The notes: a model not told the origin generated them from the letters alone. DNA of 64,000 nucleotides from Azolla caroliniana (GCA_043228905.1 JBHGNT010000003.1:13206001-13270000), one strand, 5' to 3'; shown: positions 14,901 through 64,000, counted from the stretch's first letter. Translations and numbers: made by a program.

Positions 14901-17900
14901 GGGTCTGCGTCATCCGGCTCTCCGTAGCCGGGTGCTCCTCATTCGGTTCACACCGGGTCTGCGTCATCCGGCTCTCCGTAGCCGGGTGCTCCTCATTCAG
15001 TTCACACCGGGTCTGCACCATCCGGCTCTCCGTAGTCGGGTACTCCTCATCCGGTTCACACCGGGTCTGCATCATCCGGCTCTCCGTAGCCGGGTACTCC
15101 TCATCCGGTTCACACCGGGTCTGCACCATCCGGCTCTCCGTAGTCGGGTACTCCTCATCCGGTTCACACCGGGTCTGCATCATCCGGCTCTCCGTAGCCG
15201 GATACTCCTCATCCGGTTCACACTGACCGGGTCTGCACCATCCGGCTCTCCGTAGCCGGGTACTTCTCTTCCGGTTTCGGCCGAGGCCTATCGGCCTCGG
15301 CCGCGATTGTTCGTTGGCACTGTTCTTCTCCCTTCCCATCCGGAGGGACCTGTCTCCCAACACGAAATCCTATTGGGCTGAGGCGATGTACACAGTTGTT
15401 TATCTGATCAATAGGTCTCCCTCAATACCATTGAAGGGTGATGTCCCACAAAGGGTGTGGACAGGGAAGGATGTCTCCTACCGGCATCTGAGGGTGTTCA
15501 GATATCGGGTGTACATGCATGTACCGAAAGATCAGAGGTAAAAGCTCGACAACAAGTTGAAAGCATGCATATTCATGGGATACTCGGAAGATGAATTCGT
15601 CTATAGGCTATGGGACCTAGTTGACAAGAAGGTAGTGAGAAGTCGGGATGTAGTCTTTCTGGAAGACAAGAAGTTTAAAGACTGGAAGCAACAGAAGTCG
15701 AAATCAACTCCCCAGTCAACCCCGACTACAATCGACTTAAGGCCAAGTGAGTCGTCACCAATAGCTGTAAGGAGGTAGATGGCCGACAGAGCCGAATCCG
15801 AGTCGGTCGACTCGGAGAGACCGGTTGACTATGAGTCAGAGTTGGCAGAGCTGCAAAGGTCAATTGATGAATATCAGTTGGAATTACCCAACCAGGAGAG
15901 GCCGATTGGCGAGCAGAATCCTGACCAGAGAGAAGAGTTGGCAGAGACATCCGAAAGAGAGACAACAACGAGTGGAAGAAGATAACCACTCAGGGAGAGG
16001 AAAGCACCGACTACATATGCCAGCCAATACATCATCTTCACTAATGAAGGTGAACCGGAGTGTTATGAAGAAGCCATTGCCGACAAGCACAGAGCGAAAT
16101 GGTTGAATGCGATGCAAGATGAGTTGGAATCCTTGCACGAGAATTACACCTACGACCTCGTAGAGCTACCAAAAGGTAAGAGAGCACTTACGAATAAATG
16201 GGTCTACAAAGTGAAGACTGGAGAAGCCGACAATGAACCCAGGTATAAAGCCCGCATAGTGGTAAAGGGTTTTCAATAGAAAGAGGGCGTCGACTTTGAC
16301 GAAATATTCGCACTAGTCGTGAAGATGACATCCATTCAAACTGTTCTGAGCATAGCAGCCAGTATGGATTTGGAGATCGAACAGTTGGATGTCAAAACCG
16401 CATTTCTGCATGGGGAGCTAGAAGAAGAAATCTATATGCAGCAACCTGAAGGCTTTGAGGAGAAAGGGAAAGAGAATCTGGTGTGTCTACTGAAGAAAAG
16501 CTTGGACAGTCTAAAACAAGCTCCACGCCAATGGTACAAGAAGTTCGAGTCCTTCATGATGGAACACCGGATCCAGAAAACATAGGCCGACCACTATGTG
16601 TTCGTCAAAAGGTACGAAGAAGGAGACTTCTTGATTCTCTTGCTATATGTCGATGACATGTTGATAGTCGGTCAAGATACAAGGAAGATTGGAAGCTTGA
16701 AGAAAGCTCTCGGCAAATCATTTGCCATGAAAGACCTTGGACCGGCTAAACAGATCTTAGGAATGCACATAGTTCGAGACAGAACTCAAAAGGTGCTATG
16801 GTTGTCATAGCAGAAGTATGTGACGAAGATCCTAGAGAGATTTAACATGTTCGATGCAAAGCTGATCGGCTTAGTGTTGCCGACAAATTGTAGATTGAAG
16901 GCGAAGCAGTGCCCAAAAGGGGAGAAGGAAAAGGCTGAGATGAGGAAGGTACCATATGCCTCGGCCGTTGGCAGTCTAATGTATGCTATGGTCTGTACAA
17001 GATCAAACATAGCATTCGTTGTAGGAGCAGTAAGCCGATACATGAGTAATCCAGGGAGAGAACATTGGGCAGTAGTAAAGTGGATACTCAAGTACTTAAA
17101 GGGCACCTCGGGGGTATGCCTAGGGTATGGTGTCGGAAAACCTGTGCTGGAAGGTTTTACCGACTCGGACATGTCGAGAGATGTCGACTCGAGCCGATCC
17201 ACGTCAGGATACGTGATGACCTATGTAGGGGGAGCAGTGTCGTGGCAGCCCTGACTGCAGAAGTCTGTAGTTTTGTCGACTACAAAAGCAGAGTATATGG
17301 CAACGGTAGAGGCCGACAAAGAGATAAGATTTTTTCTCACCGAATTAGGGATGAAGCAAAAGGAGCTCTTGCTTCACTGTGATAGCCAAAGTGCCATACA
17401 TCTTGCCAAGAATGCTGCATACCACTCCCGGACCAAGCATATACAGAGAAGGTATCACTGGTTGCGGGAGAGAGTCAAAGAAGGAGAGTTTTCCTTGGTG
17501 AAGATCCATACTGACGACAATGGATCCGACATGCTAACGAAGAACCTACCTATGGACAGACTCAAAGTCCGTCGATAGAAGACAGGATTGACTGACTTCC
17601 TCCCATAGGAATGAAGGGGAGTTTGTTGGGAATATGTCCCTCCAGTGGGAGGAGGAACAGACTGTCCAGAAGTTGCTGACAGTCGATGACTATGAGGAGC
17701 CGACTGACCGGACCAGGGAGTGCTGACAGTCAAAGGCAGGGAAAGTCCGACTATTCGGAAAGCCGACAGTCGAAGAGTCGAAAACAGTGAGTCGACTGTT
17801 TGTTAGTTCAACTATTATTATTATAGCAATAATAATAACGATATGTAGTAGAGGCTACATTTGTAAATAGCCCATACAGTGTATAAGTATAAATACACTT

Positions 17901-18240: not shown

Positions 18241-18935
18241 ATCATCTGCCATTGTTCGCTCCTATTGAGTTCACTCCTCCATTGCTGCCATTCTACACTG
18301 AGTTGCCGCTATTGTTCGATCGTGGATTGCTGCCACTTTTCGATCCGACGGAGTTCACTCCTCCGTAACTACCACCATTCTACACTCAGTTGTCACCAGT
18401 GTGTGTTCCAAGCATCATTTGTCACTATTTGATCTGACAGAGTTCACTCCTCCATTGCCACCATTCTACACTTAGTTGTCACCATTGTTCAGTCCTGGAT
18501 TGCAATAATTGTTTGATCCGACGGAGTTCACTCCTCCATTGCCACCATTCTACACTTAGTTGTCACTATTGTTCAGTCCTGGATTGCAATAATTGTTTGA
18601 TCCAACGGAGTTCACTCCTCCATTGCTGCCATTCTACACTCAGTTGCCACCACTATTTGGTTCAAGCATCATCTGCCACTGTTCGCTCCTATTGAGTTCA
18701 CTCCTCCATTGCCGCCATTCTACACTGAGTTGCTGCTACTATTCGGTCTTGGATTGCTGCCACTGTTCGATCTGACGGAGCTCACTCCTCCATTGTCGCC
18801 ATTCTACACTCAATTGCCACCATTGTGCATTCCAAGCATCATCTGCCACTTTTCGATCTGACGGAGTTCACTCCATTTACACCATTCTACACTCAATTAC
18901 CACCATTGTTCATTCTTGGATTGCAATAACTGTTC
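18241..18935 (+). repeat. Tandem repeat array with a unit of about 85 bp (core GAGTTCACTCCTCCATTGCYGCCATTCTACACT); first unit at about 11860-11924, before the copia insertion
   Basis: About 8 cores spaced 82-89 bp apart. The array is split by the copia element at 11925-18235. Confidence 0.85.
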
Positions 18936-19223: not shown

Positions 19224-22200
19224 ATGGATCATCAGGATAGGGATGATGCTATCAAGACACAACAAGCGATACGAAAGTATTGGGCAAAAAAAGAAAGGGA
19301 ACATCGTCAATTGTTGAAGGATATGAAAGCCAAATTCACTAAAGGTAAGGATAATATTGGTTGCGATATAGGTCTAAATACCAGTCAAAATGGAAATAAT
19401 GTGACTACTATCATAGAGAGAAAGGTTGTAGACTATTTTAATTTTCAGACCAACCACATCAGCAATGAAGACAAGAAGATAGTACTTTATGGAATATTAA
19501 ACAATCCATTGATAAAGGAATTTGTTGATTGTGATGGTCTTAATGCAAACATAACATTTGTACTAGTAAATAATCTCCGTAATAGTTTTGTATCCATGAG
19601 CAGGATAGAAGATGATCTTGTCTTAAAAAGGTCTAGTCTAATAATGTTACTTAATAGTGATGTTGACAATCATAACATTAGTGTGCTATCTAAGGTAATT
19701 TGTGTTAGTAGAAAAACTGTGTAAAATACAATGAAGCAAATTGTTTCAAGTGGTGAAGGAACTAGTCTACGAAAGCTAACAACAAGATGTAAGCCAATGA
19801 CACCCATAACATCAGAAATGAAGGATATAATCACCATATTTTGGACAAATGAGAGTAGGGTTTCACCCAACAAGAAGGATTTATGCAGGAAATGTTTTGG
19901 AAGGAGTTAATACAAGGACCATCCCATTCATCTTCTTGATGTACCTCACGTATTTACAATTATCTCAACTTTTCTTTTGATTTTTGAGCTTCGTTAGTTA
20001 GCTAACTAGCTACTAGTAATAGCGAAATAGCTATTGCCAATACTAAACTTAGCTATTATCAGCTAATTAGTTATCTCAGAATATGACCATAGCTAACTAG
20101 CTATTGGTAATAGCTAAATAGCGATTGCCAATAACTAATTTAGCTATTATCCGTTAATTAGCTAACACAATAGCTAATTAGCTACCTCAGAATATGACCA
20201 TAGCTAACTAACTACTGGTAATAGCTAAATAGTTATTGCCAATAGTAAACATAGCTATTATTAGCTAATTAGCTACCACAATAGCTAATTAGTTATCTCA
20301 GAATATGAACATAGCTCACTAGCTACTAGTACTAGCTAAATAGCGATTGCCAATAGCTAATTTAGCTATTATCAGCTAATTACCTAGCACAATAACTAAT
20401 TAGCTATCTCAGAATATGATTATAGCTAACTAGCTACTCTTAATAGCTAAATAACTATTGTCAATAGTAAACTTAGGTATTATTAGCTAATTAGCTATCT
20501 CAAAATATGACCATACCTAACTGGCTACTCGTAATAGCTAAATAGTGATTGCCAATAGCTAATTTCGCTAATTAGCTACCACAATAGCTAATTAGCTACA
20601 TTAGAATATAACCATAGCTAACTAGCTACTTGTAATAGCTAAATAGCTATTGCCATAGTTAGTTAGCTATTATCAGCTAATTAGCTACCACAAGCTATCT
20701 TAGAATATGACCATAGCTAACTAGCTACTGGTAATAGCTAAATAGCGATTGCCAATAGCTAATTTAGCTATTATTAGCTAATTACCTACCACCATAGCTA
20801 ATTAGCTACCTCAGAATATGTTCGTAGCTACTCTTAATAACTAATTATGTAATTAGTTACACTTAATAGATAATTAGCTACATGTAACACATAATAGCTA
20901 ATAAGGTACTCTTAATAGCTAATTAGCTACTCTTAATAGCTAACTAGCTATTATTAGTTAATTAGCCATAATTGTCGCTAATTAGCATCAGAATATGAAC
21001 ATAGCTAACTAGCTACTTGGAATAGCTAATTAGCTATTGCCATAGTAAACTTAGCTATTATCAACTAATTAGCTACCACAATAGCTAATTAGCTATCTTA
21101 GAATATGACCATGGCTAACTATCTACTGGTAATAGCTAAATAGTGATTGCCAAAAGCTAATTTAGTTGTTATCAGCTAATTAACTACCATAATAGCTACT
21201 TAGATACCTTAGAGTATGACCATAGCTACTCTTAATAGTTAATTAGCTAAATAACTACTTTGTATAACTAATTTAATAGGTAATTAGCTACTCTTACTAG
21301 GTAATTAGCTACTCTTACTCGGTAATTAGCTACTCTGAATAACAAACTAGCTATTATTAGCTAATTAGCTATAACCGTCGCTAATTAGCTAGAGAATATG
21401 AGCATATCGAACAAGCTACTAGTAATAGCTAATTAACTACATCAGAATATGTTCATAGCTAATTAGCTATACATAATAGCTAATTAGCTACTCTTAATAG
21501 CTAACTAGCCATTAACAGCTAATTATCTATAACCTTCGCTAATTAGCATTAGAATATGACCATAGCTAGCTAGCTACTTGTAATAGCTAAATAGTTATTG
21601 CCATAGTAAACTTAGTTATTGTCAGCTAATTAGCTATCTTAGAATATGACCATAGTTAACTAGCTACTGCTAAGAGCTAAATAGTGATTGCCAATAGCTA
21701 ATTTAGGTATTATCAACTAATTAGCTACCAAATAGCTAATTAGCTATCTTAGAATATGACCATAGCTACTCTTAATAGCTAATTAGCTAATTAGCTACAC
21801 TTAATAACTAATTAGGTAATTAGTTACACATAATAGGTAATTAGCTACTCTTAATAGGTAATTAACTACTCTTAATAACTAGGTAGCTATTATACGCTAA
21901 TTAGCTATAACCGTCGCTAATCAGCTAGAAAATATGACCATAGCTAACAAGCTACTAGTAATAGCTAATTAGTGACATCAGAATATGATCATAGCTAAAT
22001 CGTTATTGGAAATAGGTAGTTAGCTATGTCAAGAGCTCATTAGCTATTAAGGTAGCTTATTAGCTACTGACCATAGATAATTAGCTTCTCTTAATAGCTA
22101 ATTAGGTATTGTGAATAGCTGACATAAGGGCGCATCAGAATACTTAGTGGACTCCCTTTTTATTACGTAGGTCAATTTATTTATTAGGTTCAGACGAATG

Positions 22201-28584: not shown

Positions 28585-31500
28585 TGTTGAGAGACAAGCT
28601 CAACATCGGCCGGATCGGCTGAAGAAGCCGAGGACCGGATCGGTTGGGACCGATCGGTTAGGCCGAGTGTGTAAACCGGGAGGTCGTTAGGAAAGATATT
28701 CCGTGAGGAATATATTTGGGAGTTAGTGTAGGAGCTCTTGATGAGCATTGAAGTACTGTCAGTACTTCGATCAGTCCTTCTAGGACTTGTATAAAAATGT
28801 TCACTGAGCACGTCTTATGTACAGACTGAGTATTATTGTTGAATATAATTTTTTGTGTTTCTCTCTCTGTCTCTCCCGTGTATACCGTGTAAGCCCAAGC
28901 TCTCCATTGAACCTGAGTTTCCTTCCTCTGTTCTGTCTTCATACTTGCTTCCGCACGCTACTTTTTACATGGTATCAGAGCGCGAGGGTTGAGAACCTCT
29001 CTGCAGCCGACAGAGCTTAATGAAGAAGAACAAGAAGAACGATGGATAGAGGCATGGCGAGCTCGCTTCCAACAGAGAAGCTCGATAGAACCAACTACGC
29101 GTCTTGGTCCTACAAGATGCACCTGTACCTGCTCGGGCACGGCTACTGGAGTTACGTCGAAGGAGCTAATGACGCGGCACCCAAATCGACACACAGAGAC
29201 TTCCCGTCGTGGGAGCAATCGGCGAGCAGGGTACTATACGGCTTCGCATCGTGTGTGGGCAAACAACTATTGAGCTATGTTCGGGATGCAAAGATGCCGA
29301 AGGGTGCGTGGGAAAATCTGAAGAAGATTTTCGCCGCGAGCACCACAGCTAGGAAGCTCCAGCTCCGACAGGAGTTGAGCAACCTACGACAACGCGACTT
29401 GTCGGTGGTGGACTATACCTCGAAGATCAAGGATATCTGTGACTCCCTCGCCTCCATAGAGGTGAACATTGAGGAGAGCGAGATGGTCCAGATCTGTCTC
29501 GGAGGTTTGGCGTCGAAGTTCGGAGCATTCCGAACGGTTGTGTGTACCCGGGAGAATACGCCGTCCTTTTTCGACTTACAGTCGATGCTCCTAGTAGAGG
29601 AGAACCACGCGGGTGCGTCTACAAGCACGCACACCGACAACAGAATGTTGTACACGGAGGGAGATAGGCCCCGTGGACGTGGAGGACGAGGCGAGTCGGC
29701 GCGCAATGGAGGCAGCCCGACGAGATCAAGGAAGAAGGCACCGAAGTGATGCCGACAGCAACTCCGGACCCTCCGGAAATAGGGGGAGTCGAAGCGATGA
29801 GAACTGGCAAGGGAAGGCCATCGCAGAGTGTTGGTACTGTGGCAAGAAAGGCCACAGGGAAAGTGAGTGCTGGAAGAAGCGCGCCGACTCGGAGAGAACC
29901 GGTTCTGGAAATGGCTCCGGACATACCAACAAGGGAAATCGGCAGCGATCGCAATACGCCAAAGACTCCGGGAGAGCCGGAGAAGGGTCTGTCTTCGTGA
30001 CGAGACACGAAGCAAACTCAATGAAACAGAGCACCCCGAGATCGGACGAGGTGTGGTATGTAGACTCTGGCGCGTCAAACCACATGACGAGCCATAAGGA
30101 GTGGTTCTCGTACCTTGAAAAACTGATGCAACCTGGAGTAGTCGCAACTGGAGACGACACTCCGCATCCGATCACGAATGTCGGAGAAGTTCCCCTTAGC
30201 CATGTCGAGCAGAAAGGGAAACTCATGAACGTGCTGCACGTTCCGACAATCACGAAGAACTTGGTCTCGGTCGGACAGATCGTTGACCAGGGATGGAGGT
30301 TCGGTTTACACACCTCGGGTGCTTCATTGAGGAAGAAGGCCGTGTGATTGCGCAAGGGCGCAGAGACGGGAGGATGTTCATCCTCGACTCCACTGACGGC
30401 GGCACCGCAATGTTCGCAAAGGGACAAAAATCCGAGTCGGACATCGACTTGTGGCACAAGCAGATAGGCCACGTCAACCACCAACGGCTTCAATATCTGC
30501 AATCGAAACAAGTAGTATTCGGATTGCCAAATTTAGTGGCCGAAAGGCACAAATTTGTGAAGCCTGCCAGCTCGGGAAGCAACACCGACTTCCCTTCCCA
30601 AATGAGTGAAACCGGAGCCGGAATAAGCTCGACCTTATACACTCCGATGTATGGGGGCCGGCACAAAACGTTAGTCTTGGCGGGAGCCGATATTTCGTCT
30701 CCTTCATTGACGATCACACGCGGCACACGTGGATCTACCTCATTGAGAGGAAGAGCGAAGTCTTCGACTGTTTCCGTGACCTCAAAGGGTTCGTGGAAAC
30801 GGAAACAGGACGGAAGATCAAGTGCCTGCGGTCGCATGGCGGGAAAGAGTACTTTTCCGGTCAATTCAACGCTTATCTACAACAAATGGGAATTCGCCGC
30901 GAATTCAGTTGTAGATACACGCCGGAGCAGAACGGCGTGGCCGAGAGAAAGAATCGGTCAGTTGTGGAAGCGGCACGGGCAATGCTGGAGGAGAATAGCT
31001 TGCCCAAGTTCTACTGGGCCGAGGTGGTATGGACCGCGGTATACATCCAGAACCGGATCGGAGACAAAGTGTCGGCGCACGAGCTATATTTCGGAACGAA
31101 GCCGAACTTGCGACACTTGAGGGTGTTCGGTAGTGTTGGGTGAAAGGTCCCTCCAGATGGGAAAGGAGAAGAACAGTGCCAATGAACAAACCCGGCCGAG
31201 GCCGAAACCGTCTGAGGTGTACCCGGCTACGGAGAGCCGGATGATGCAGACCCGGTGAAGACCGGATGAGGAGTACCCGGCTACGGAGAGCCGGATGATG
31301 CAGACCCGGTGAAGACCGAATCAGGAGTACCCGGCTACGGAGAGCCAGATGGTGCAGACCCAGTGAAGACCGGATGAGGAGTACCCGGCTACGGAGAGCC
31401 GGATGATGCAGACCCGGTGAAGACCGGATGAGGAGTACCCGGCTACGGAGAGCCGGATGATGCAGACCCGGTGAAGACCGGATCAGGAGTACTCGGCTAC

Positions 31501-34500
31501 GGAGAGCCGGATGGTGCAGACCCGGTATGAACCGGATGAAGAGACATATTCGTAAATATGTTTCTGAGAGTCCATCGAGGCTATACTTGTAAATAGCTGA
31601 AAAGTCATATTAGTATAAATATGACTTAGGGCAAACTTTTAGTTGTGTGTTGTTGTTTTTTTTCATTATTCTTGTTGGTGCAAGAATAGAGAGTGTGCGT
31701 AACTGTACAGAGAGAGAGAGAGAGAGAGAAAGAGGTTGTTGCCTCTGTTGTAACCGCCGCCTGTGGCGAAGACCTGTGAGCACGAGGTCGTTGCCTTAGT
31801 GAACTCACTGTTGTACATTCTTACATAGTGACAGTTTGCAGCCTGTGGGCTGCCGTGGTTTTTCCCCTAGTTTGGGGTTTTCCACGTAAACCTCCTGTGT
31901 ACCTTTCCTCTTCTTTGTGTCGCGTTTTCTGTGTATCATTCTAAACTCGGTTGTGGCCGAGTGTTGCGCATAAGGAGCCTTGAGTTCCGTCAGGTAGCAT
32001 TGCGTATGTGCATATACTGAAGGAGAAAAGGAGGAAGCTGGACGCAGAGGCTGAGAAATGCATCTTGGTCGGTTACTCGAACAGCAGAAGGGTTATAAGT
32101 GCTATAACCCTCGCACCAAACAAGCGCGTGTCAGCCGCAACGTTGTGTTTGACGAGTCCGCGTCCTGGTACCTGCCCTCGACTACGAACCCCGACTCCAA
32201 TCCGAGCTCTGACGATGAGGTCAGCGAGGCCGAGATGCCTCCGAATGAGCCCGAAATCGAGACCCGCGACGAGAGTCCGATTCACTCTGGTTAAGTGGAC
32301 CGATTGGACGACTGAGTCGGTACGACCAGTCCGATGAAGAGCCGGCGAGTAGTGGAGACTCGGCCGTGCATTCCCCACGCAGGAAGCCGAGGAGACGGCT
32401 TACGCGCAAAGAGAAAGGGAAGAAGAAGGTGTCGGATTCCGGCACGGAAAGGAACGAGTCAGACTGACGCGAGTCCGACTCCGAGGGAACCGGTGACGGG
32501 TCTTTAAAGGTGAAGACCGCGTCGACCGAGAAGGCCTCGACATCGGCTAATGTGAGATTATGCCGATCTACCCGCCAGAAGAATCCTGTTTTGCGGTTCG
32601 GATACAACGAGTACATGGCGCATCATTATGCGTACATGACCCGTGTAGCGGAAGTGCGTGAGCCGGAGACCTACGCAGAAGCGGCGAAGGACGCGAATTG
32701 GCGTGCTGCGATGGAGGAAGAGATGCACGCATTGGCAGAGAACTAGACCTGGGACCTGGTTGACACACAGAGAGGGGTAAAACCGATCGGGTGTAGGTGG
32801 GTGTACAAGGTCAAGTACAACACCGATGGCTCGGTCAACCGGTACAAGGCTTGGCTAGTGGCAAAGGGCTACGCGCAAAAACACGGCATCGACTACGATG
32901 AGACGTTTGCGTCGGTCGCGAAAATGACGACCGTCCGTGTTTTGCTCACAATAGCCGCGGCCAAGGGGTGGCACTTACATCAGATGGATGTAAAGAATGC
33001 GTTCCTGCAAGGTGACCTTGAGGAACAAGTGTACATGGTACAGCCCCCCGGATTTCACTCCGGAACGAACTCCTCGGTAGTATGCCGACTGAAGAAGTCC
33101 CTTTACGGACTGAAGCAAGCCCCGCGTGCCTGGAACGCGAAGATCACGCAACAACTGCGTCGGATGGGCTTCGTCACGTCAAAATCAGACTCTTCCCTGT
33201 TCATCCGGATAGGTCAACTTGGACCGGTTAGTATTCTACTATATGTTGATGACTTGGTCATCACCGGCGCCAACCTCGGTGAAATCGACCGCGTGAAGCT
33301 CCAGCTTGCGGCATCGTTCGACATGAAGGATCTGGGGGACCTTCATTACTTCCTCGGGATCGAAGTGATCCGTACCCCCGAAGGCATATTGATTAGCCAA
33401 CGTCATTACGTGCTGAGTATGCACTTCAAGCTCGGGATGGCCGACTGTATGTCCGTCTCGACTCCTCTGGATAGAACCGTCAAGCTTCGTCCCGATACGG
33501 GAAAGGAATGCGACCCGACGAGGTTCCGACAAATTGTCGGAAGCCTCATATACTTGACCATCACCCGACCCGACCTCAGTTATCCGGTTGGGGTGATCAG
33601 TCAGTTCATGGCGCGACCTACCAAGGAGCACCTTCAGTGTGCGCAACGCGTACTTCGGCACTAAGGACCGCAGACTGCTATATCGGACCGGTGCAGCCGC
33701 GCAGTTAGTCGGCTACACCAATGCTGATTGGGCTGGCAACGCCGCCGAGTCTGGATACGCATTCTCCCTCGGGAGTGCCACGATCGCGTGGAGCAGTAAG
33801 AAGCAGCCGACAGTTGCACTGTCGAGCACCGAAGCCGAGTACCGAGGAGCGGCTGTCGCGACATGCGAAGCCATATGGTTGAAGCGGCTACTTAAGGACT
33901 TGCAAGAGGAGGTGACCGATCCAACGACGATCTACTGCGACAACCTCAGCAGCATCCAACTCGGGAAGAACCCCGTCTTCCACGCACGGACCAAGCACAT
34001 TGAGGTGCCGAGTCGGTTCGGATGTTTGATTCAGATATGCTGAATCAACCGAGGCCCAAGCGGAAGAAAAGGCTGCAGGAGAAGCGTCAACACCGCAACA
34101 GCAGAAGAGCTGATAAAGGCCGCATGAGCAGACAAGCCGATTGGAAGGGTCAAAGCGCGCGGAGTCGAACAAGTCGAGGAGCGCGAGCGAGGCGAGAAGC
34201 CAGGAGGAACCGGTGCTGTGAAGATCCCGAAGAGCCTGAAGTTGAGCTTGAGGGGGAGTGTTGAGAGACAAGCTCAACATCGGCCGGATCGGCTGAAGAA
34301 GCCGAGGACCGGATCGGTTGGGACTGATCGGTTAGGCCGAGTGCGTAAACCGGGAGGTCGTTAGGAAAGATATTCCATGAGGAATATATTTGGGAGTTAG
34401 TGTAGGAGCTCTTGATGAGCATTGAAGTACTGTCAGTACTTCGGTCAGTCCTTCTAGGACTTGTATAAAAGTGTTCACTGAGCACATCTTATGTACAGAC

Positions 34501-51552: not shown

Positions 51553-52985
51553 TCTAGCGTGGGACTTTTCTATCATTGGTGTCTACTAGTGTGTTGACTC
51601 AAATTTGACTCCAACTGGACTAGGACACCCTCTTCCTCTCTCGCTTCCTCATTTAGGATGCTTGTCTTCACCGCTTGTAAAGACAAGTTCTCTTCTTGAC
51701 ATGAGCTGCTGAGAGTAACCACCAGGTTCTCCCAACTGTCCGGCAGTATGCACATCAGTAGGATGGCCTGGATAGCATCATTAAGGGGAAACCTGGTTGC
51801 AACAAGTTGATTTACATACCCCATGAATGTCATGATGTGTTCGACGATACTCTCACCGTCTCTGTGTTTCAGCCATACGATCTTTCTCATTAGTAAGGTT
51901 TTATTTAGGGCATTCTTCCTCTCGTATAGACCTCATAGCTTCTACCACATCTCGTGGGCATTTGTGTCATTCGCCACAGGCTGAAGGACACTTAGATCAA
52001 CACACTATCTGATGGTGGCCACCACCTTTCTGTTAAGAAGTTCCCAATCTGACTCTAATACCCCCTTGGGTATTTCTGCTCTACCAATCGGCTCATCCAG
52101 GTCTTTGACTATGAGAAGGTCCTCCATCTTTATCTTCCAGTCTACATAGTTCTATGGGTTTAGAACTATCATACTTGGGAAGCCACTCACACCTCCTTGC
52201 ATGCTTGCACCTCAAGCTCTCATACTAGTTTGTAGAGAAACTAATCGTCACTACGCAAGAAAAGGAATACGCTGAAATACACAACTTGGAAATACAGAAA
52301 ACAATATACACAGATTTAACGTGGAAACCCTGAAACGGGAGAAAACCACAGACAACAAAACTTCCCTATATAATGGATATACAATGGAGAAGATTACAAC
52401 ACTTTGTGTGTGGAGTGTATCAGACTCACAGGGCTCTTGGCATTTGTTGTTACAGAACACAGCTATGCCACCGCTCTCTCTCTCTCTCTCATTTTACTCC
52501 GGCCATCATTGTTTACATTCTATAGCTCAAGGGAAAGCTCTTTCAGGGAGCTTTCTAAGGAATGTTCATTTACTGAATTCCGTTACCGTGGCAAGAAGCT
52601 ATGAGCATTTTCGTCTGCATCCATCTTCGCCCCACGGTTCCTCAAATGCAAGGTGGAGTTTGAAACCCTAAACCAAGTGAAAGGTACATTCTCTCTCTCT
52701 CTCTCCCTCTCTCTCTCTTTTCAAAGCTCTCTGTAAGTTCACTCCGTCTATCGTTTTCTACGTTCTATAGCTCGTTGGAAAGCTCTTTGAGAGAGCTTTC
52801 TAAAGAACGTTCATTTATTGAATTCCGTTACCGTGGCAAGAAGTTATGAGCATTTTCATCCGCAGCCATCTTTGCCCCATGGTTCCTCAAACGGAAGGTA
52901 GATTTTGAAGCCCTAAATCGAGTGAAAGGTACATTCTCTCTCCTTCCCTCTCTGTCTCTCTTTTCCCATAGGGTTTGTCCCTACA

Positions 52986-53855
52986 ATGGCAAATACTCGT
53001 AAAACCGCCGCAAAGTTCGGGGGTATGATTGATAATGAGCCGAGATCACTAACAAATCTCGATTCTAATGCAATGGACAAAATGCTTATGAGTCACTTGA
53101 TTCCACTTCAAGAAACCACAAACAAGCAAGGTGAAGAGATTAGGATGTTAATGAAAGAGAAAACTAAGCTCCAAAGTGTTATCATTGAGAATGAAAGGCT
53201 TAAACAAGTGGTTGCAAAACTTCAAGAAGAGATTCAAGAATGTAAACGAGCTTCTTTTAAAACAAATGAGCGCCTTAACAAGATTGAGTTAAAGGAAGCA
53301 TTAAAGGAAGAAAAATTGGACACGATGAGGCGGGATGTAAGTAAGATGAAAAATGTATGTACAACGAAGTCATGGGCCGATGTATGTGGTGGGGATGTGC
53401 TATCAAACTCATCTAATATGCATGTGATGCATCAAGAGAACAATATAGAAAGCATAGATGTCTGAGAATTGAAAGAACATGAACGACGATCAAAGAACAT
53501 TGTCGTCCGTGGGATTAAAGAAGAGAGTATGGAAACACCGGCATCCCTTGGAAAGGCCATTGGTCAAATTCGTAGCATGCATTATGGGATGTCAGATGTG
53601 AATGTATATGGGGCACATCGAGTTGGGAAACATGGTGTTACTCGCTCCGGAGAAAGGCCTATTGTATGCACAATGACAAATGATACAAAGCGGCGGATCA
53701 TACTCAAAAATAGTTCAATATACCTCAAAGGTACACAATGCTTTGTGAGTGAAGATCATACTATCTCACAACAAAATGCTCTTCGTAAAGCATATGAAGA
53801 AAGATTGAAAAACAAGGTTAAGGATGTGCCTAAAGATGGAAATGTAGGCAAATAG
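52986..53855 (+). pseudogene. LINE ORF1 (copy 1) with one in-frame stop
   Basis: TGA at 53463 corresponds to CGA in copy 2 (near 62998). Confidence 0.85.
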
Positions 53856-54142
53856 GGACACGTGATCTATGAGACTAACCCACGCCTTCTACGACTATGC
53901 TTTTGGAATTGCAATGCATACCCATGGAATGCAGGATTTGGCATAGAGCAGTTCACCGATGACTTGGATATCACACTTCTTGTTGAAACATGGGAGCATG
54001 ATACTCAAAGGATTGATGGTTTAGGAAACTATAATGTACACTCTTTGATATGGAAGAAAAATCCAAGACAAAGAAGAGGACAAGGAGGGGTGGCATGTTT
54101 GATTAAGAAGGAAATAGAGAAATATGTGTCAATCATAAAAAC

Positions 54143-57100
54143 TGTTGGGATTACGGTCCCTCCGGATGGGATGGTCAGATGTCCGGGAATCGGGAATGAA
54201 GACCCGAATGAGGAGTACCCGGTATCGGAACCGGATGATGAAGACCCGGTTTCGGATCCGGATGATGAAGACCCCGGCTACGGAGCCGGATGACGAATGT
54301 ACCCGGAGAGAGATCCGGATGCGGGGACATATTTGTGAATATGTTTGCCAAGGGCCCTCTAGGCTATATTTGTAAATAGCCCGAAAGTCATATGTGTATA
54401 AATATGACTTAGGGCAAACAGTTTTGTGGTTGTTGCTCATTTTTCTGTTTTTTCCACTTAGAGGGAGCGAAGTGAGAGCAGCCGAGAGAGAGAGTGAGAG
54501 AGAGAGAGAGAAAGGAAGAGGTCGACGCCTCTGTGTAATACCGCCGCCTGTGGCGAGGACAGCGAGCTCAAGGTCGTCGCCTTGCAGCTCGCCATTCTAC
54601 ATTCCCTACGTATAGTGATAGTTGGAGTCTTGCACTCCCGTGGTTTTTCCCGTCTAGGGTTTTCCACGCTAAACCCTGTGCATTCGAGTCTCTCTCTGTG
54701 TTTTTCGATTTACTGCTGCATTGACTCGTGTGTCCTCGGTTGTGGCCGAGAGGTGAAGGTTTTGAAAGCGTCAATTTCTAACAATCTGGTATCAGAGCGA
54801 CTACAGTGCAGAAAATGGAAGGCGGCAGCAGCGGGCAGCCGGGGATGATGGTGCTGAATGCGCAGAACTACGCCGACTGGAAGATAAAGATGGAGGATCT
54901 GCTCATTGTTCGGGACCTGTATGAACCGATCGACAAGTCGGAAATACCCAAGGGGGTACTTGAGACGGAATGGAGGCTTCTGAACCGGAAAGCCGTTGCA
55001 ACCATTCGGCAATACGTCGACGTGAGCGTTCTACAACATGTGGCGAACGACACCAACGCATATGAGATGTGGCAGAAGCTGTCGGACCTCTACGAGAGGA
55101 AGAATGCGTTGAACCGGACCTCCCTGATGAGGAAGATAGTGAACCTCAAGTACCGGGACGGCGAGAGTATGGTGGAACACGTAAGCACGTTCATGGGATT
55201 CGTGAACCAGCTTGCGGCGATCAAGTTCCCGTTGGAGGATGCAATGCAAGTCATCATGCTGATGTGTACATTGCCGGAAAGCTGGGAGAACTTGGTGGTG
55301 ACTCTCAGCACCTCCTGCACCGAAGATAACTTGTCCCTACAAACGGTAAAGACAAGCATTTTGAACGAAGAAGCGCGTCGGAGAGATAAAGAACCGGCCT
55401 CCGATCCGAAGATGCTGCTTACCGAATCGGATCGGGGAAGACAACGGAACCGGAGTCCGCAAAGACGGGAGAAGTCGGGGACCCGGTCGCAGTCAAGAGG
55501 AAGGCCCACATGCTTCCACTGTGGGAAGCCGGGGCACTTCCGAAAGAATTGTCGGCATTACCGAAAAGACAACGGAGCCGACGACACCGATTCGAAGAAG
55601 TCTTCGGAACGGAACGGTGCTTACCGGGGAGCCACGGACCGGAATGGTTCGGATCGGCGAGGGCAGGACCGGAAAGGAACGACGGCACTCGCGGCAAGTG
55701 AAGAGGAGATCATGCTCATCACCGAAGAAGGTGAACTAAACATTGCCGGTGATGAGACTACCTGGGTGGTCGATTCCGGAGCGTCGTTCCACCTGACCCC
55801 GGAAAGAAGATACTTCTCATCCTACACAGCCGGTGAGCATGGCTGTGTTCGGATGGGAAATGAAGGTACGTGCCGGATTGCCGGCATAGGAGACGTGTGG
55901 TTGACAACCTCGACCGGATGCAAAATGTTGCTAAAGGATGTCTGACACGTTCCGGAGGTTCGATTGAACCTGATTTCGGCCGGGAGGCTAGACGATGAAG
56001 GTTACACAGGTAGCATCCGGAACTGCGTAATGAAGTTCAGCAAGGGGAGCCTGATAGTGGCTCGGGCCCGGAAAGTCAACACACTGTACCTTATGAATGC
56101 CTGGTTGTGTCCGGAGGAGTTGAACGTGGCAGCCGACACTGCCGGTGAGCTATGGCACAAGAGACTGTGCCACATGAGTGAGAAGGGGATGAAGAGGCTT
56201 GCAGAAGACAACCTTATTCCAGTGAAGCATGTGCACCTGGAGAAGTGCACCGATTGCCTGGCCGGTAAGCAGAACCGAACCTCCTTCCACTCAAGGCCAC
56301 CGACGAGACGTAGCGCACCATTGGAGTTGGTGCACACTGACGTGTGTCAAGTAGAAACGAAGTCACATGGCGGAGCCCAGTACTTCGTGACATTCATTGA
56401 TGACCACAGCCGGAAGCTGTGGACGGCACCGTTGAAGACAAAGGACCAAGTGTTGTGCGTCTTCAAAGAACTCCACGCGAGAGTGGAAAGGGAATCCGGC
56501 AAGAAGCTGAAAGCGATACGAGCGGATAACGGAGGGGAATACCGGGGGCAGTTCAAGGAGTACTGTCGCTCGAAGGGAATCCGGCTCGAGTTTACTGTGC
56601 CGAAGACGCCGGAACTGAACGGGCTGGCCGAGAGGATGAACCGGACCATAATGGAGAGGGTCCGGAGTATACTGGCGCATGCGAAATTACCCCAGGGGTT
56701 TTGGGCTGAGGCAATGTCGACGGCGACATACGTGATAAACAGATCACCCTCAGTACCTTTGGACGGAGACACGCCGCAGAGAGTGTGGACCGGTAGGGAA
56801 GTATCCTACTGGCATCTGAAGGTGTTCGGGTGTCTCGCATATGTGCATGTGGCAAAGGACCGGAGAGGAAAGTTAGATCCAAAGACCCGGCCATGCATAT
56901 TCCTCGGTTACGGCGATGACGAGTTCGGCTACCGAGTATGGGACCCGGTCGACAAAAAGATATTCCGGAGTCGTGATATCATCTTCATGGAGGACAAGAC
57001 ACTCGCCGACTGGGAGTCGGAGAAGAAGATGAAGAGCTCCAAGTCGACCGGTGAGGATCAACTCTACGAGGAGCAGTATCGACCGGCAAGGGACCAGTTA

Positions 57101-59537
57101 GCACTCGAGGATCCGGCCGAAGACGGTGAAGAAACAGAACCGGCCGAGGAAGATGAAACTGATACCGGAACCGGCCCCGATCCCGAAATGGATTCGGATG
57201 AAGAGGAAACGGAGGAGCCGGTTACCGAAGCTCCGGAACGGAGATATCCTCTAAGAGAGAGAAGGGCCCCCCGGAGATTTCCGGAACCAGAGCACGTGCT
57301 GCTAACCGACGAGGGGGAGCCGGAGAGTTTTGAAGAAGCAAAGCTTGACACCCATAGCCGCAGGTGGTTAAGTGCCATGCAGGAGGAGATGGATTCCCTG
57401 CATGAGAACCACACATATGAACTTGTGGAGTTGCCGAAAGGAAAGCGGGCACTTCGAAACAAGTGGGTGTTCAAGCTGAAACCGGGAGATGCCGGAAACC
57501 CCCCGAGATACAAAGCCAGGATCGTGGTGAAGGGGTTCCAGCAGAAGAAGGGCGTCGACTTCGACGAGATATTTGCCCCGGTAGTGAAGATGACCTCCAT
57601 CCGGACGGTGCTGAGCATAGCGGCAAGCATGGACCTCGAGGTAGAACAGATGGACGTGAAGACGGCATTCCTTCACGGTGACCTCGAAGAAGAGATCTAC
57701 ATGCAGCAACCGGAAGGATTCGAGAAGAAAGGGAAGGAGCACCTGGTATGCCGGTTGAAGAAGAGCCTTTACGGACTGAAGCAGGCTCCCCGGCAATGGT
57801 ACCGGAAGTTCGACTCTTTCATGACCGACAAAGGGTACCACAAAACGCAGTCCGATCACTGCGTGTTTGTGAAGAAGTTCGAAGGAGGAGACTTTCTAAT
57901 ACTCCTCCTGTACGTGGACGACATGTTGATCGTCGGACGGGACCAGGTCAAGATACGGATGCTGAAGAAAGCGCTTCACCGAACCTTCTCAATGAAGGAC
58001 CTGGGTCCGGCGAGGCAAATACTAGGGATGCACATCATCCGGGACCGGAAGAAGAAGCAGTTGTGGCTGTCACAGGAGAAGTACGTGACAAAGGTGCTTC
58101 ACCGGTTCAACATGTCGGAAGCAAGACCGGTCGGGTCAACCCTCCCGGCAAACTGCAAGTTGTCCAGCAAGCAAAGCCCCAAGACAAAGGCTGAGAAGGA
58201 GGACATGATGAAAGTACCATATGCCTCTGCCGTCGGAAGCTTGATGTACGCAATGGTGTGTACAAGACCGGACATAGGATATGCAGTCGGAGTGGTGAGC
58301 CGGTACATGAGCAATCCCGGCAAAGAGCACTGGAACGCGGCCAAGTGGATACTCCGATACCTGAAGGGCACGGCAAACGTGTGCCTCCGATTCGGCTCCG
58401 GTAAGCCCGAACTCGACGGCTTTACCGATTCGGATATGTCGGCTGATGCAGATACCAGCCGGTCCACATCAGGGTATGTGATGACGTATGCAGGGGGAGC
58501 TGTTTCGTGGCAGTCGAGGCTGCAGAAGACGGTTGCGTTGTCAACCACGGAGGCGGAGTACATGGCGGCTGTTGAAGCCGGCAAGGAAATAATATGGATG
58601 AAGGACTTCATTAGAGAGCTCGGTATCCGGCAGGAGGAGTACCGACTCTACTGCGACAGTCAGAGTGCCATCCACCTTGCGAAGAATGCGGCCTATCACT
58701 CCCGGACGAAGCACATCCAGCGAAGATATCACTGGATCCGGGAAAGGATAGAAGACCAGGAGTTCGTGCTGACGAAGATCCACACGGACGAGAACGGGTC
58801 AGATATGCTGACCAAAGTGCTCACACCCGACAAGCTGGAAGCGTGCCGGAAGAGGGTCGGACTGGAAAGACATCCCATGCCGAAGTGAAGGGGGATCTTG
58901 TTGGGATTACGGTCCCTCCGGATGGGATGGTCAGATGTCCGGGAATCGGGAATGAAGACCCGAATGAGGAGTACCCGGTATCGGAACCGGATGATGAAGA
59001 CCCGGTTTCGGATCCGGATGATGAAGACCCCGGCTACGGAGCCGGATGACGAATGTACCCGGAGAGAGATCCGGATGCGGGGACATATTTGTGAATATGT
59101 TTGCCAAGGGCCCTCTAGGCTATATTTGTAAATAGCCCGAAAGTCATATGTGTATAAATATGACTTAGGGCAAACAGTTTTGTGGTTGTTGCTCATTTTT
59201 CTGTTTTCCACTTAGAGGGAGCGAAGTGAGAGCAGCCGAGAGAGAGAGTGAGAGAGAGAGAGAGAAAGGAAGAGGTCGACGCCTCTGTGTAATACCGCCG
59301 CCTGTGGCGAGGACAGCGAGCTCAAGGTCGTCGCCTTGCAGCTCGCCATTCTACATTCCCTGCGTATAGTGATAGTTGGAGTCTTGCACTCCCGTGGTTT
59401 TTCCCGTCTAGGGTTTTCCACGCTAAACCCTGTGCATTCGAGTCTCTCTCTGTGTTTTTCGATTTACTGTTGCATTGACTCGTGTGTCCTCGGTTGTGGC
59501 CGAGAGGTGAAGGTTTTGAAAGCGTCAATTTCTAACA
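54143..59537 (+). mobile_element. Very young, near-intact Ty1/copia element
   Basis: TSD AAAAC at 54138-54142 and 59538-59542. LTRs 54143-54783 and 58899-59537 differ by 2 substitutions and a 2-nt indel (counted by eye). PBS-Met 54787-54798. PPT GAAGGGGGA near 58887. Confidence 0.97.
54815..58888 (+). CDS. gag-pol: Copia gag-pol polyprotein (gag, PR, IN, RT, RNase H) with a single in-frame TGA at 55943-55945
   Basis: ORFs 54806-55945 and 55964-58888 are in the same frame. Motifs CFHCGKPGHFRKNC, WVVDSGAS, HKRLCH..CTDC, YVDD and TKHIQ. Confidence 0.93.
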
Positions 59538-59542
59538 AAAAC

Positions 59543-62408
59543 TGATGAAAATAAATGCTACATATGACTCAAAATAGAAACACCTAATGATTTGCCCACT
59601 TTTGTAGTTGGATGTTACATTCCTCATCAAGATTCTAACTTTTATGCTTGTTTGGATAAAGATCAACTGTTTGGCAATCTAGAAGATGATATTGCTTATT
59701 TCCCATCCAAAGGGGAAGTTATTGTCTTTGGTGACATGAATGCTCATCCAAGAAGTTTCCAACTTGATTCACAAGAATCTTTCATGCCACATATCTCAAG
59801 GATGCAAGAGGATATGCAAATGTATAACCGCTCTTCTAGCGATGAAAAAGATCCGGACCAATTTGGGAAGTTACTCCTACAAATGTGCAATAGTACCGGA
59901 TTGCTTATTGCAAATGGTATTTCCTTATGGCCCAACACTAATGGTTTTACATGTAGAAAACACAACGGACATAGTGTGATTGACTATGTGCTACTTTCCA
60001 AAGGTATTTTGGATCGTATACATAAATTCTCACTTGGTGAATGGACACAGGAATCCGATCATAGGCCTTTATGTATTGATCTCAAATTTATGCATAGGTT
60101 TGATTGTGAGAAGGCTATTGAAGATAATAAACAACCGCACTTGAGCATGAACCTTAAGCGAGCACCCATGTATTCCAAGATGGTTGAGGATATGTTACAA
60201 ATGACAAAGATACAACATGGTGCCACACTAGAATGCAAATGGGAAGCTTTCAAGAATGTCATTCTCTCATGTACAAACAAATGTTTTTCGACCAACCGCA
60301 CATCTTGGAAGTGCACCAAGAAACTTAGAAAAATTTGGTTTGATAAAGAATGTCATGAAGCTCGAAAGTGCCTTATGGTTTTGGATGTAGTTAAGGATAA
60401 AGAAAATTACCAAAAGCATTTGCATGAGTATAAAAGGTTTATTCAAAGAAAGAGACGAATATGGGAAGTTACTCAACAATTTATCCAAACGCAAGAGAAA
60501 GCACATGCATGTGCTAAATTTTGGGGAAATCTAAAGGGAAAACGTGTTGAGAGTTATGGTGACTTAACTCTTCACGACTTGTCTATGCATGGTAAGAATT
60601 TATATGAGTTATCTCGTGCCGGAAAGATGATGTGTTATGGTTCTCTTTCCCATATGCCTCCCTTCTTTACAATTGAAGATATATGCATAGGACTTAAGAA
60701 ATTGGCCTCTCGAAAGGCAAGCGATCTTCAATGTATAAAGGCTGAAACGCTCAAATGAACGAGAAAGGAAGCACATATATGGATAAGCGATATGTTTAAT
60801 GATGCAGTGCAACATGGTATGCCGTACGATTGGACTACAAATTGGATCAAACCTTTACATAAAGGTGGAGATATAAATAATGTGAACAACTATCGAACCA
60901 TCATGGTTGACTCATTAATGGCAAAACTATTTGGATGTATAATGGAATCAAAGATAAGTGTATGGGCTGAAAAAAGTGGTAAGAGAGCTTATGGACAAGC
61001 TGGCTTTCGGAAATACCATAGCACCATTGATCACCTTATCACCCTTCGAGTATTAATGGAGGAAAGTTGCCTTAGAGGTAAAGGTTTATATTGTTGCATT
61101 GTAGACTTGAAGAAAGCTTTTGATATGGTACCTCGTGAGCATCTTTGGAGGCGAATGGAAGAACTTGAGGTGCCAACTGAATATATGCTTACAATTTCCC
61201 GAATTTATGAGCAGGTTATATGTTGTGTGCGCACGAGAGATAAACTTTCAGATTTTTTCAAAAGGACTATTGGTGTTAAGCAAGGATGCCCACTCTCACC
61301 AACACTATTTGGTCTATGCATTGATGAATTGGAAGAAATGGTTACCAAGTTTGCAAAGGAAGAATGTGTTGAAGAAGTTGCCATTGGGAATGTAGTAATT
61401 ATGCTTTTGCTATATGCAGATGATGTAGTGCTTCTTGCAAATACTTTAGGAGATGCACAAAAGCTTATGAAGGCATTAGAAAACTTTTGCATGCATACTA
61501 AATTAAGTGTCAATAGCTCTAAAACAAAGATTATGCTTGTGAAGAGCCAAAAAAGAGATAAACCATGCATTATGTACAGCAATGAGCCACTTGAATGTGT
61601 GGAAAGCTTCAAATATCTTGGCCTTGAAGTTCCTTCAAATCATAGATGGAATGAATGTGCTACACGCCGCTTAGAGGCGGGCAAGCGAGCATACTATGCA
61701 TTTGAGAACACATGTAATCTTGGAGATATTAAGTGTTGAATACATGCTTAAGGTTCAAAAAGTCCCTCACATCGACTTCCTAGAATTGCGTGGGAAGCAA
61801 GCAAAAAGATCCAAAAGACGCATAAAAGAAAAAATTTGTGTTCCGGTTGGATGCAAGATATAGAAAAATTGTTTGGTAGATGGGATGCGAGACACTTGCT
61901 TCATGATGCATCATTAGATTCCTCTGTAAATGAGGCATTTTTGCAATGCCAATGTATCATGACATGGGACAAATGTGGAGGCTCACGCTTCACATATTAT
62001 ACTACACATGTTGCACCTAACTACAAAACCATATTCTTTGCGGAACGGCGAAATCGTACACATCCATACATGTTAGAGGCCATACCGTTATCTGCCATTC
62101 GAACCATTGCTTCCATGCGACTTAGCTCACATGCATTGCGATGTGAAATAGGGCGTTGGGGTACAAGTGATGAGAGTGGTTGGCTATGCACACTTTGCCC
62201 TAAACAAGTTCGCGAGTCTGAGTATCACACTTTGATACAATGCTCTGCCTTTGATCATATTTGACCATGCTTTCCATATCTCTTCGATCGAGCCCAATCC
62301 TTGCATGAATTCCTCTCACAACCACAATGTGCACTCTCCATTGCAACATTCATTGGTAAAGTTCTTGAACATCAAGAGTCACTACTCACTGTCACACGTA
62401 TCACGTGA
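59543..62408 (+). pseudogene. LINE ORF2 (endonuclease-RT), continuation after the copia insertion
   Basis: ORFs 59592-60758, 60792-61739 and 61836-62264 carry EN, RT and C-terminal Cys/His motifs, separated by stops and an apparent deletion. Confidence 0.88.
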
Positions 62409-62490
62409 AATGTAATATTTTTGGTCTCATAGGTCATATTTGACCTCCGAAGACGATAATATAATCTATCTCTCTCTCTCTCTCTCTCTT

Positions 62491-64000
62491 CTCGTAGGGT
62501 TTGGTCCTACAATCACACACACTCGTAAGCCCACCTCAAAGTTCAGGAGTATGATTGATAATGAGCCGAAATCACCAACAAATGTTGATTCCAATGCAAT
62601 AAACACAATGGACAAAATGCTTATGAGTCACTTCATTTCTCTTCAAGAAACTATAAACAAGCAAGGTGAAGAGATTAGGATGTTAATGAAAGAGAATGCT
62701 AAGCTCCAAATTATTGCCATTGAGAATGAAAGTCTTAAGAAAGTGGTTGCAAAACTTGAAGAAGAGATTCAAGAATGTAAAAGAGCTTCTTTCCAAACAA
62801 ATAAGCGCCTTAACAATATTGAGTTCAAGGAAGCATTAAAAGAAGAAAAATTAGATACAATGAGGCAGGATGTAAGTGAGATGAAAAATGTATGTACAAC
62901 AAGATCATGGGCCGATGTATGTGGTGGGGATGGGGTATCAAACTCATCTAATATGCATGTGATGCATCAAGAGAAGAATATCAAAAGCATAGATGCCCGA
63001 GAATTGAAAGAACATGAACGAAGATCAAAGAACATTGTCATCCGTGGGATTAGAGAGGAGAGTATGGAAACACCCGCTTCCCTAGGAAAGTCCATTGGTG
63101 AATTTTTTAGCATGCATTATGGGATGTCGGATGTGAATGTATATGGGGCACACCGAGTTGGGAAACATGGTGTTACTCGCTCCGGAGAAAGGCCTATTGT
63201 ATGCACAATGACAAATGATACAAAGCGGCGGATCATACTCAAAAATAGTTCGGTATACCTCAAAGGTACACAATGCTTTGTGAGTGAAGATCGTACTATC
63301 TCACAACAAAATGCTCGTCGTAAAGCATATGAAGAAAGATTGAAAAACAAGGTTAAGGATGTGCTTAAAGATGGAAATGTAGGCAAATAGGGACACGTGA
63401 CCTATCAGACTAAACCACGTCTTTTACGACTATGCTTTTGGAATTGCAATGGATACCCATAGAATGCGAGATTCGGCATAGAGGAGTTCATCCATGACTC
63501 GGATATCACACTTCTTGTTGAAACATGGGAGCATGATACTCAAAGGATTCAAGGTTTAGGAAACTATAATGTACACTCTTTGATATGGAAGAAAAATTCA
63601 AGACAAAGAAGAGGACAAGGAGGGGTGGCATGTTTGATTAAGAAGGAAATAGAGAAATATGTGTCAATCGTAAAAAATGATGAACATAAATGCTACATAT
63701 GGCTCAAAATAAAAACACCCAATGATTTGCCCACTTTTGTCGCTAGATGTTACATTCCTCATCAAGATTCTAACTTTTATGCTTGTTTGGATAAAGATCA
63801 ACCTTTTGCAAATCTAGAAGATGATATTTCTTATTTCCCATCCAAAGAGGAAATTATTGTCTTTGGTGACATGAATGCTCATACAAAAATTTTCCAGCTT
63901 GATTCACAAGAATCTTTCATGTCACATATCTCAAGGATGCAAGAGGATAAGCAAATGTATAGCCACTCTTGTAGCAATGAAAAAGATCTGAACCAATTTG
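62491..64000 (+). mobile_element. RTE-X-like LINE, copy 2 (ORF1 and start of the ORF2 endonuclease); its 5'UTR start is probably 52491-52719
   Basis: Closely similar to 52965-54142 plus 59543 onward, without the copia insertion. ORF1 is open to 63390. Runs off the window end. Confidence 0.9.

Follow-up and report, generated by a model that had tools for sequence, protein, structure and literature searches.

An Azolla LINE that prefers (CT)n tracts and creates new ones at its own 5′ end

A high-copy, recently active LINE family of Azolla caroliniana both prefers (CT)n microsatellites as insertion sites and creates them, since full-length copies carry de novo (CT)n at their 5′ ends at sites that are tract-free in paralogous host repeats. 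The presence of 5′ (CT)n on full-length copies, together with its gain at tract-free sites, means that the element brings its target repeat with it and thereby gives rise to microsatellites. The family is represented in the window, by which is meant the whole 64,000-nucleotide stretch analysed (GCA_043228905.1 JBHGNT010000003.1:13206001-13270000), by two nested copies, from which a sequence-only reading had proposed a LINE that carries its own (CT)n target. That proposal holds, mainly through the (CT)n brought to the 5′ junction by full-length copies; the route then envisaged, through a tract within the 5′ untranslated region (UTR), is rare.

Young full-length copies are 4.57 kb long, with two open reading frames (ORFs), APE endonuclease and reverse transcriptase (RT) domains and a (CTAT)n tail. 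Their nearest-sister identity has a median of 99.6% (38 young full-length copies) and many retain both ORFs open. Candidate 3′ ends numbered 2845 in a genome search and candidate 5′ ends 405; the exact tail motif occurs 838 times. Truncation points are variable, the 3′ end is fixed with (CTAT)n and LTRs are absent. ORF1, of ~290 aa from its ATG, is predicted to form a coiled coil and an RRM (pLDDT 81, in an alignment-based model that replaced a poor single-sequence model of pLDDT 58), and human L1 ORF1p provides the top eight Foldseek hits (best E 6e-5). The ORF2 frame of 1126 codons contains PF03372, PF14529 and PF00078, matches R2 and L1 ORF2 in the PDB and has a C-terminal Cys/His motif. 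With an APE and RT ORF2, 5′ truncation, a fixed 3′ end and a nucleic-acid-binding ORF1, the family is an APE-type non-LTR retrotransposon. Among named homologues the closest are those of Adiantum, a fern, whose ORF1 reaches ~60% across most of the length, followed by those of a liverwort and a yew. Relatives are also present in four contig runs aligned with the 5′ part of the element. ORF1 homologues of 58-64% labelled Enterobacter (P0094 and P0100) lie on short contigs and are likely to be plant contamination of those assemblies.

In 47 of 48 junctions ORF1 and ORF2 share one frame across a single TAG, and there is no ORF2 ATG upstream of the endonuclease motifs, so that ORF2 could be expressed past the TAG by readthrough or by a GTG restart. 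Some 17-18 bases after the stop are complementary to the 3′UTR (53862-53879 versus 62420-62437). The energy of this duplex (-29.4) does not surpass the best value among 432 control windows (-30.0) and therefore does not, by itself, mark out the pairing.

The strongest evidence that the element creates repeats comes from the 5′ ends of its full-length copies. Tracts of 14 nt or more adjoin the 5′ end of 38/42 full-length copies but of only 16/39 truncated ones (Fisher p=3e-6), a contrast that is inflated because the truncated class includes boundaries produced by later LTR insertions, which lower its 5′ CT rate. Among copies with no more than 6 nt of 3′ CT, the figures are 11/14 and 9/24 respectively (p=0.02). 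Dropped before these counts were L189 (the L177 flank), five loci with internal breaks (L175, L181, L183, L193 and L217), six loci already counted, and tails with a copy of more than 1.5 kb or no matching body. Paralogous host repeats served as empty sites, and six full-length copies were thereby resolved with tract-free hosts, a small set in which four sites were chosen for their short 3′ CT; of 26 further copies, 14 had no paralogue among the loci compared. Five of the six filled copies have acquired a 5′ (CT)n of 22-70 nt, and none of the six has acquired a 3′ tract (0-3 nt). The clearest case is L113, which gained 53 nt and whose nine paralogues, 98-100% alike, all lack the tract; they read CTATCT at the site, and CTATCT stands at both ends of the filled copy. 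L119 gained 33 nt (tract absent from 9/9 paralogues), L116 gained 34 nt with the loss of ~8 nt of target (absent from 7/7 paralogues among the matches listed) and L101 gained 70 nt, its empty paralogues being four repeat units (80-84%). No 5′ tract was gained at L097, which has one paralogue.

The remaining case, L100, gained 22 nt where 9/9 paralogues are tract-free. This copy is full-length, with all but its last 300 bp inverted, and its (CT)11 lies at the internal joint, away from target DNA. The arrangement is twin-priming-like, and a later inversion is also possible; the empty site is tract-free either way. Twin priming is given as a source of 5′ poly(T) in the available part of PMC2837659. 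Among truncated copies, those tested for the origin of a long 5′ tract (L182, L225 and L204) sit in native tracts.

Preference for existing (CT)n is evident at the junctions. Among the first 30 tails in genome-position order, at least 10 nt of CT follow the tail in seven, versus 0.07% of background positions, and at least 6 nt in 11, versus 0.14%. The targeting is not strict, as 13/30 tails have 3 nt or less of downstream CT. The earlier claim of (CT)n targeting thus survives as a strong preference, accompanied by a relaxed tail of micro-homology sites, but not as strict specificity. The 3′ count understates repeat use because an insertion can fall at the downstream edge of a tract, as at L182, where 7/7 empty paralogues have the native tract 5′ of the insertion. 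When either side is considered, at least 14 nt of CT touch 23/39 truncated copies, and many resolved hosts are native CT tracts, mostly in LTRs. In the accessible portion of PMC4494074, a LINE is counted as microsatellite-specific when one target type makes up more than 20% of its flanks; both the 7/30 on the 3′ side and the 23/39 on either side exceed this value.

The nested pair in the window is laid out in Table 1. As first described, the LINE sequence starts at a (CT)n tract within a minus-strand copia LTR; this host tract is uninterrupted at 12383 and 17964. The UTR unit is indeed present twice with a 245-bp period (52482-52965, 84% matches), both units terminating in AAAGGTACATT(CT)n, and the LINE body from 52945 is repeated from 62471 with 91% identity. 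The 3′ end of copy 1 runs through (CT)10 at 62470-62489 into TCTCGTAGGGTTTGGTCCTACAAT. This (CT)n, which does lead into the sequence that follows the UTR tract, had been taken for the tail of copy 1, but it belongs to the target; the tail proper is (CTAT)n. Ten diagnostic columns in the UTR separate two subfamilies, represented by 29 and 15 sequences. Unit A agrees with the older subfamily, that of copy 2, at 9/10 columns and unit B with the younger, that of copy 1, at 10/10; as the body of copy 2 also falls in the older subfamily, copy 1 must have entered the UTR of copy 2 at the CT tract and divided it. The proposed order, in which copy 2 entered the LTR tract and copy 1 then entered the (CT)n of copy 2's UTR, is upheld by these columns and by the host LTR, half of which resumes beyond copy 2, ~2.9 kb past the window end, and ends at 67176. 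Copy 2 itself ends at ~66835, ~2.8 kb outside the window, and just 55 bp of the host copia's other LTR can be aligned. The earlier reading omitted a 5.4-kb young copia that splits copy 1 (LTRs 99.4% alike) and the 222 bp that copy 1 lacks near 61736. The history of the locus would therefore run from the entry of copy 2 into the LTR tract, through that of copy 1 into the UTR tract, to that of the young copia into copy 1.

Table 1. Features of the nested LINE locus, in window coordinates
Feature	Position	Strand	Remarks
Host copia: gag start and 3′ half of its 5′ LTR	51592..52490	-	ends in (CT)8 target tract, 52474-52489
Unit A: 5′UTR of copy 2, older subfamily, severed from its body	52491..52690	+	subfamily 2 at 9/10 diagnostic columns
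(CT)n junction: left part of copy 2 UTR tract and 5′ (CT)n tag of copy 1	52691..52721	+	
Copy 1 5′ end and 5′UTR (unit B)	52722..52986	+	internal impure CT tract 52935-52968
Copy 1 ORF1: predicted coiled coil and RRM, L1-ORF1p-like fold	52987..53855	+	one premature stop; final TAG 53853-53855
Copy 1 ORF2 start: APE endonuclease N-terminus	53856..54142	+	ORF1 frame, past single TAG
Young copia LTR retrotransposon, later insertion into copy 1	54143..59537	+	TSD AAAAC
Remainder of copy 1 ORF2: APE, RT, C-terminal Cys/His motif	59538..62408	+	several stops, 222-bp deletion
Copy 1 3′UTR and single CTAT tail unit	62409..62469	+	
(CT)10: right part of copy 2 UTR tract, target site of copy 1	62470..62495	+	
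Copy 2 body: ORF1 and ORF2 start	62496..64000	+	runs on to ~66835

Two other origins of the doubled UTR were rejected. A two-monomer 5′UTR is not the family norm, as a second unit occurs in 0/29 other young-subfamily copies, in agreement with the check, proposed with the original reading, that solitary copies carry a single unit. A segmental or tandem duplication is at odds with copies that are 91-92% alike, belong to different subfamilies and have LTR halves on both flanks.

Several other features of the region were recorded. At 52719-52738 the head of the young subfamily has ~17 bases absent from the older one; these may be captured upstream flank, which would fit a transcription start further upstream. 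The gag-pol frame of the young copia is broken by one stop (55943-55945), and its LTRs contain tandem repeats of 27 bp as well as an (AG)n tract that is a target of the LINE elsewhere (L104 and L123). A small contig, C1067 (L034/L065), repeats the window locus with 99.85% identity over 3.4 kb and is likely to be a haplotype or assembly duplicate. The window also holds a complex TAGCTA-rich tandem array at 19999-22120 (periods 21, 111, 222 and 424), and 54-bp tandem repeats in related LTR-like segments together with an 84-bp repeat array (14881-15276, 31213-31543 and 18246-18924). The LINE family recurs ~20 kb past the window end (L032-L033) as another 3′ fragment, 500 bp long and 91% alike; the same stretch also holds a degenerate tandem region of 2.2 kb.

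The nested pair is real but rare, and incidental to the biology of the family. Genome-wide, the exact tail-to-UTR junction pattern was found only at this locus and on its duplicate contig, versus 838 exact tails. One further case of nesting in the family's UTR tract involves a distant sister LINE (L269 300-2300, minus strand, ORF2 ~25% alike). Head-to-tail joints at the outer tract also occur, with 12/95 5′ junctions following a LINE tail, five of the same family and seven of sister families; a tail-to-head pattern gave three matches, a lower bound, since known cases in which the gap is longer or a base differs escaped it. No array of more than two copies was seen at the six head-to-tail sites examined or at the window locus. 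The idea that arrays grow by way of the 5′UTR tract is right about the junction seen here but weakly supported as a general route, with one such locus within the family and two copies at most. As a few hundred UTR tracts would make up less than 1% of CT targets, with ~70,000 CT tracts per genome by rough extrapolation (11 in 78.5 kb), no special preference for self is needed. At least two sister LINE families, ending in (TTCT)n(CT)n or similar, are stacked on the same tracts (L269, L047, L063, L188, L196, L197 and L199).

The gained tracts are probably copies of a transcribed (CU)k leader, which RT would copy and which would then anneal to a few CT bases of the target to allow second-strand synthesis, the site being chosen by tail pairing and perhaps by a bias of the endonuclease. 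In such a scheme the RNA would begin inside the upstream repeat, carrying part of it as a 5′ leader. ORF2 would nick the AG strand, where the CUAU/CU tail of the RNA would pair and prime reverse transcription, a pairing that would favour (CT)n yet tolerate short CTAT or CTC sites. On a full-length RNA, RT would copy through the leader, and the (AG)k end of the cDNA would anneal to a few upstream CT bases on the target strand and prime the second strand, writing (CT)k into the genome. The new tract would be the next region of transcription start as well as a target for the LINE and its sisters. Endonuclease specificity and tail pairing would leave the same sequence. Given the 22-70 nt spread of gained tracts, a leader would need slippage or varied start sites, and the truncated copy L215, with 17 nt of 5′ CT and short 3′ CT, may count against it. 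More tentatively, and with the balance slightly against it, the family may follow a self-renewing cycle outside Tx1/R1, in which it is transcribed from its own (CT)n, carries the repeat as a 5′ leader and, by integration, sets promoter-like tracts and landing sites across the genome.

The pure and variable gained tracts could also be produced without a long leader, if RT, on reaching the RNA 5′ end or on joining the target, slipped repeatedly in a telomerase-like manner on a short template of CTCT. The CT-rich head of the element suits this alternative, which also accounts for L100. However, no tract has been added at the CT-poor junctions of truncated L202, L186, L213 and L219, so slippage would have to act at the true 5′ end alone, and the precedent of R1A, as set out in the available part of PMC2718515, favours a transcribed tag; we therefore consider repeated slippage unlikely. 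A further proposal is that a short CT seed at the junction was lengthened by replication slippage once the copy was in place, giving the long tracts. Expansion and contraction of microsatellites beside retrotransposons are known (PMC3812793, in the text accessible), and at L182 and L225 the filled tract is somewhat longer than its native counterpart. Nevertheless, growth of this kind is very improbable, as 5/6 copies less than 0.7% diverged from their sisters would have gone from ~1-3 to 11-35 units, whilst equal seeds on the 3′ side of the same copies stayed short; the 99.4-99.8% sister identity of the six resolved copies likewise argues against later growth.

If the endonuclease simply sought out (CT)n, as has been proposed for Kibi, every flanking repeat would be native and arrays would be built by self-nesting in the UTR, as the sequence-only reading had it. 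Such pure targeting would explain the many native host tracts, the nesting in UTR tracts of the window pair and of the one sister-family case, and the LINE tails that precede 12/95 5′ junctions. It fails where five young copies have gained (CT)n at sites with tract-free paralogues, and UTR nesting at one locus against 838 tails, without arrays beyond two copies, also speaks against it. As a complete account it is largely refuted by L113, L119 and L100, and we regard it as very improbable. A transcribed leader remains our preferred explanation.

The lineage is probably RTEX, judged on general features of that clade, namely the presence of ORF1, a C-terminal zinc-finger-like motif and a short-repeat tail. 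These correspond in the element to its ORF1, Cys/His motif and (CTAT)n tail. A quick RT tree, from which labelled RTEX sequences were absent, places the element among unnamed, fern and liverwort proteins that share the C-terminal motif. The RTE clade proper lacks a C-terminal Cys/His finger and has a W-x-G-H motif at its C-terminus. It was rejected, as the element possesses the Cys/His motif and no DUF6451, and five WxGH rows occupy a separate branch of the same quick tree (SH-aLRT 97); the RTE-type LINEs to which the sequence-only reading pointed for their short terminal repeats have a C-terminal motif that the element lacks. The plant L1 clade is characterized by a DUF4283 ORF1, zf-RVT and a poly(A) tail. 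This too was rejected, neither DUF4283 nor zf-RVT being found and the tail being (CTAT)n. Membership of the clade of Kibi or of R1A is not supported; human L1 ORF2 scores ~74 bits, similar to R2, and the tree is one without a Tx1 reference.

A plant family that prefers (CT)n and creates it at its 5′ end is a testable source of long CT/GA repeats. In plants, such repeats are common near transcription starts. The family also gives natural access to the second-strand step, a poorly understood part of LINE insertion, and it counsels caution, as a repeat at the 5′ flank of a LINE is not in itself proof of targeting. The routes of microsatellite birth reviewed in the accessible text of PMC3812793 are 3′ tails and internal proto-repeats; if the cycle outlined above is true, it would represent a 5′-end route for dinucleotide microsatellites.

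By analogy with known systems, the element appears to function as Kibi does with respect to its target and as R1A does with respect to the 5′ tag. SVA elements carry a 5′ CCCTCT hexamer, an element-borne pyrimidine repeat, and HeT-A has 5′ tags gained from upstream transcription; the Azolla LINE resembles the former in its 5′ pyrimidine repeat and the latter in the tags that upstream transcription would supply. Its likeness to RTEX lies in occurrence in ferns and liverworts, two ORFs, APE-RT, the C-terminal Cys/His motif and a short-repeat tail. RTE-X is listed for Marchantia (10.1101/827881) and Ceratopteris (PMC6890710), as regards abundance and centromere enrichment, and the available parts of these records differ in describing neither (CT)n targeting nor 5′ tags. 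Excerpts of PMC13295347 report that RTE-clade tails correlate with TSD bases and, in this 2026 paper, that site-specific APE LINEs are confined to Tx1 and R1. In the literature searched, which largely excluded subscription papers, Repbase reports and supplements, no plant LINE was found to be described as targeting or seeding (CT)n, so that an earlier description is possible. Zepp of Chlorella, known here from a title cited in PMC1635262, forms nested clusters and is likewise a self-nesting LINE, but nesting in Azolla is occasional and microsatellite-mediated. The existence of microsatellite-specific LINEs in animals, invoked in the sequence-only reading, is confirmed by the available portions of PMC4494074 and PMC3812793, which describe Kibi in (TC)n and Koshi in (TTC)n, both of the Tx1 clade of fishes, as well as Waldo, Mino and Dong, as interrupters of microsatellites that are sequence-specific through their endonuclease. 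Like Kibi, the Azolla element is inserted in a microsatellite, and in the same TC repeat; unlike all of these animal elements, so far as those portions describe them, it is a plant element with relaxed specificity, a (CTAT)n tail and a repeat created at its own 5′ end. For melanogaster-type R1A, the accessible part of PMC2718515 states that full-length copies found outside 28S bring with them 7-28 bp of 28S upstream sequence, a tag proposed to anneal to the target for second-strand priming, and that truncated copies behave differently. Both are APE-type LINEs whose full-length copies bear upstream target sequence as a 5′ tag and leave it at off-target sites. The R1A tag, on that description, is a fixed 28S sequence tied to one rDNA site, whereas that of the Azolla LINE is a variable microsatellite of 22-70 nt with dispersed targets, and here, unlike in R1A, off-target events create new targets.
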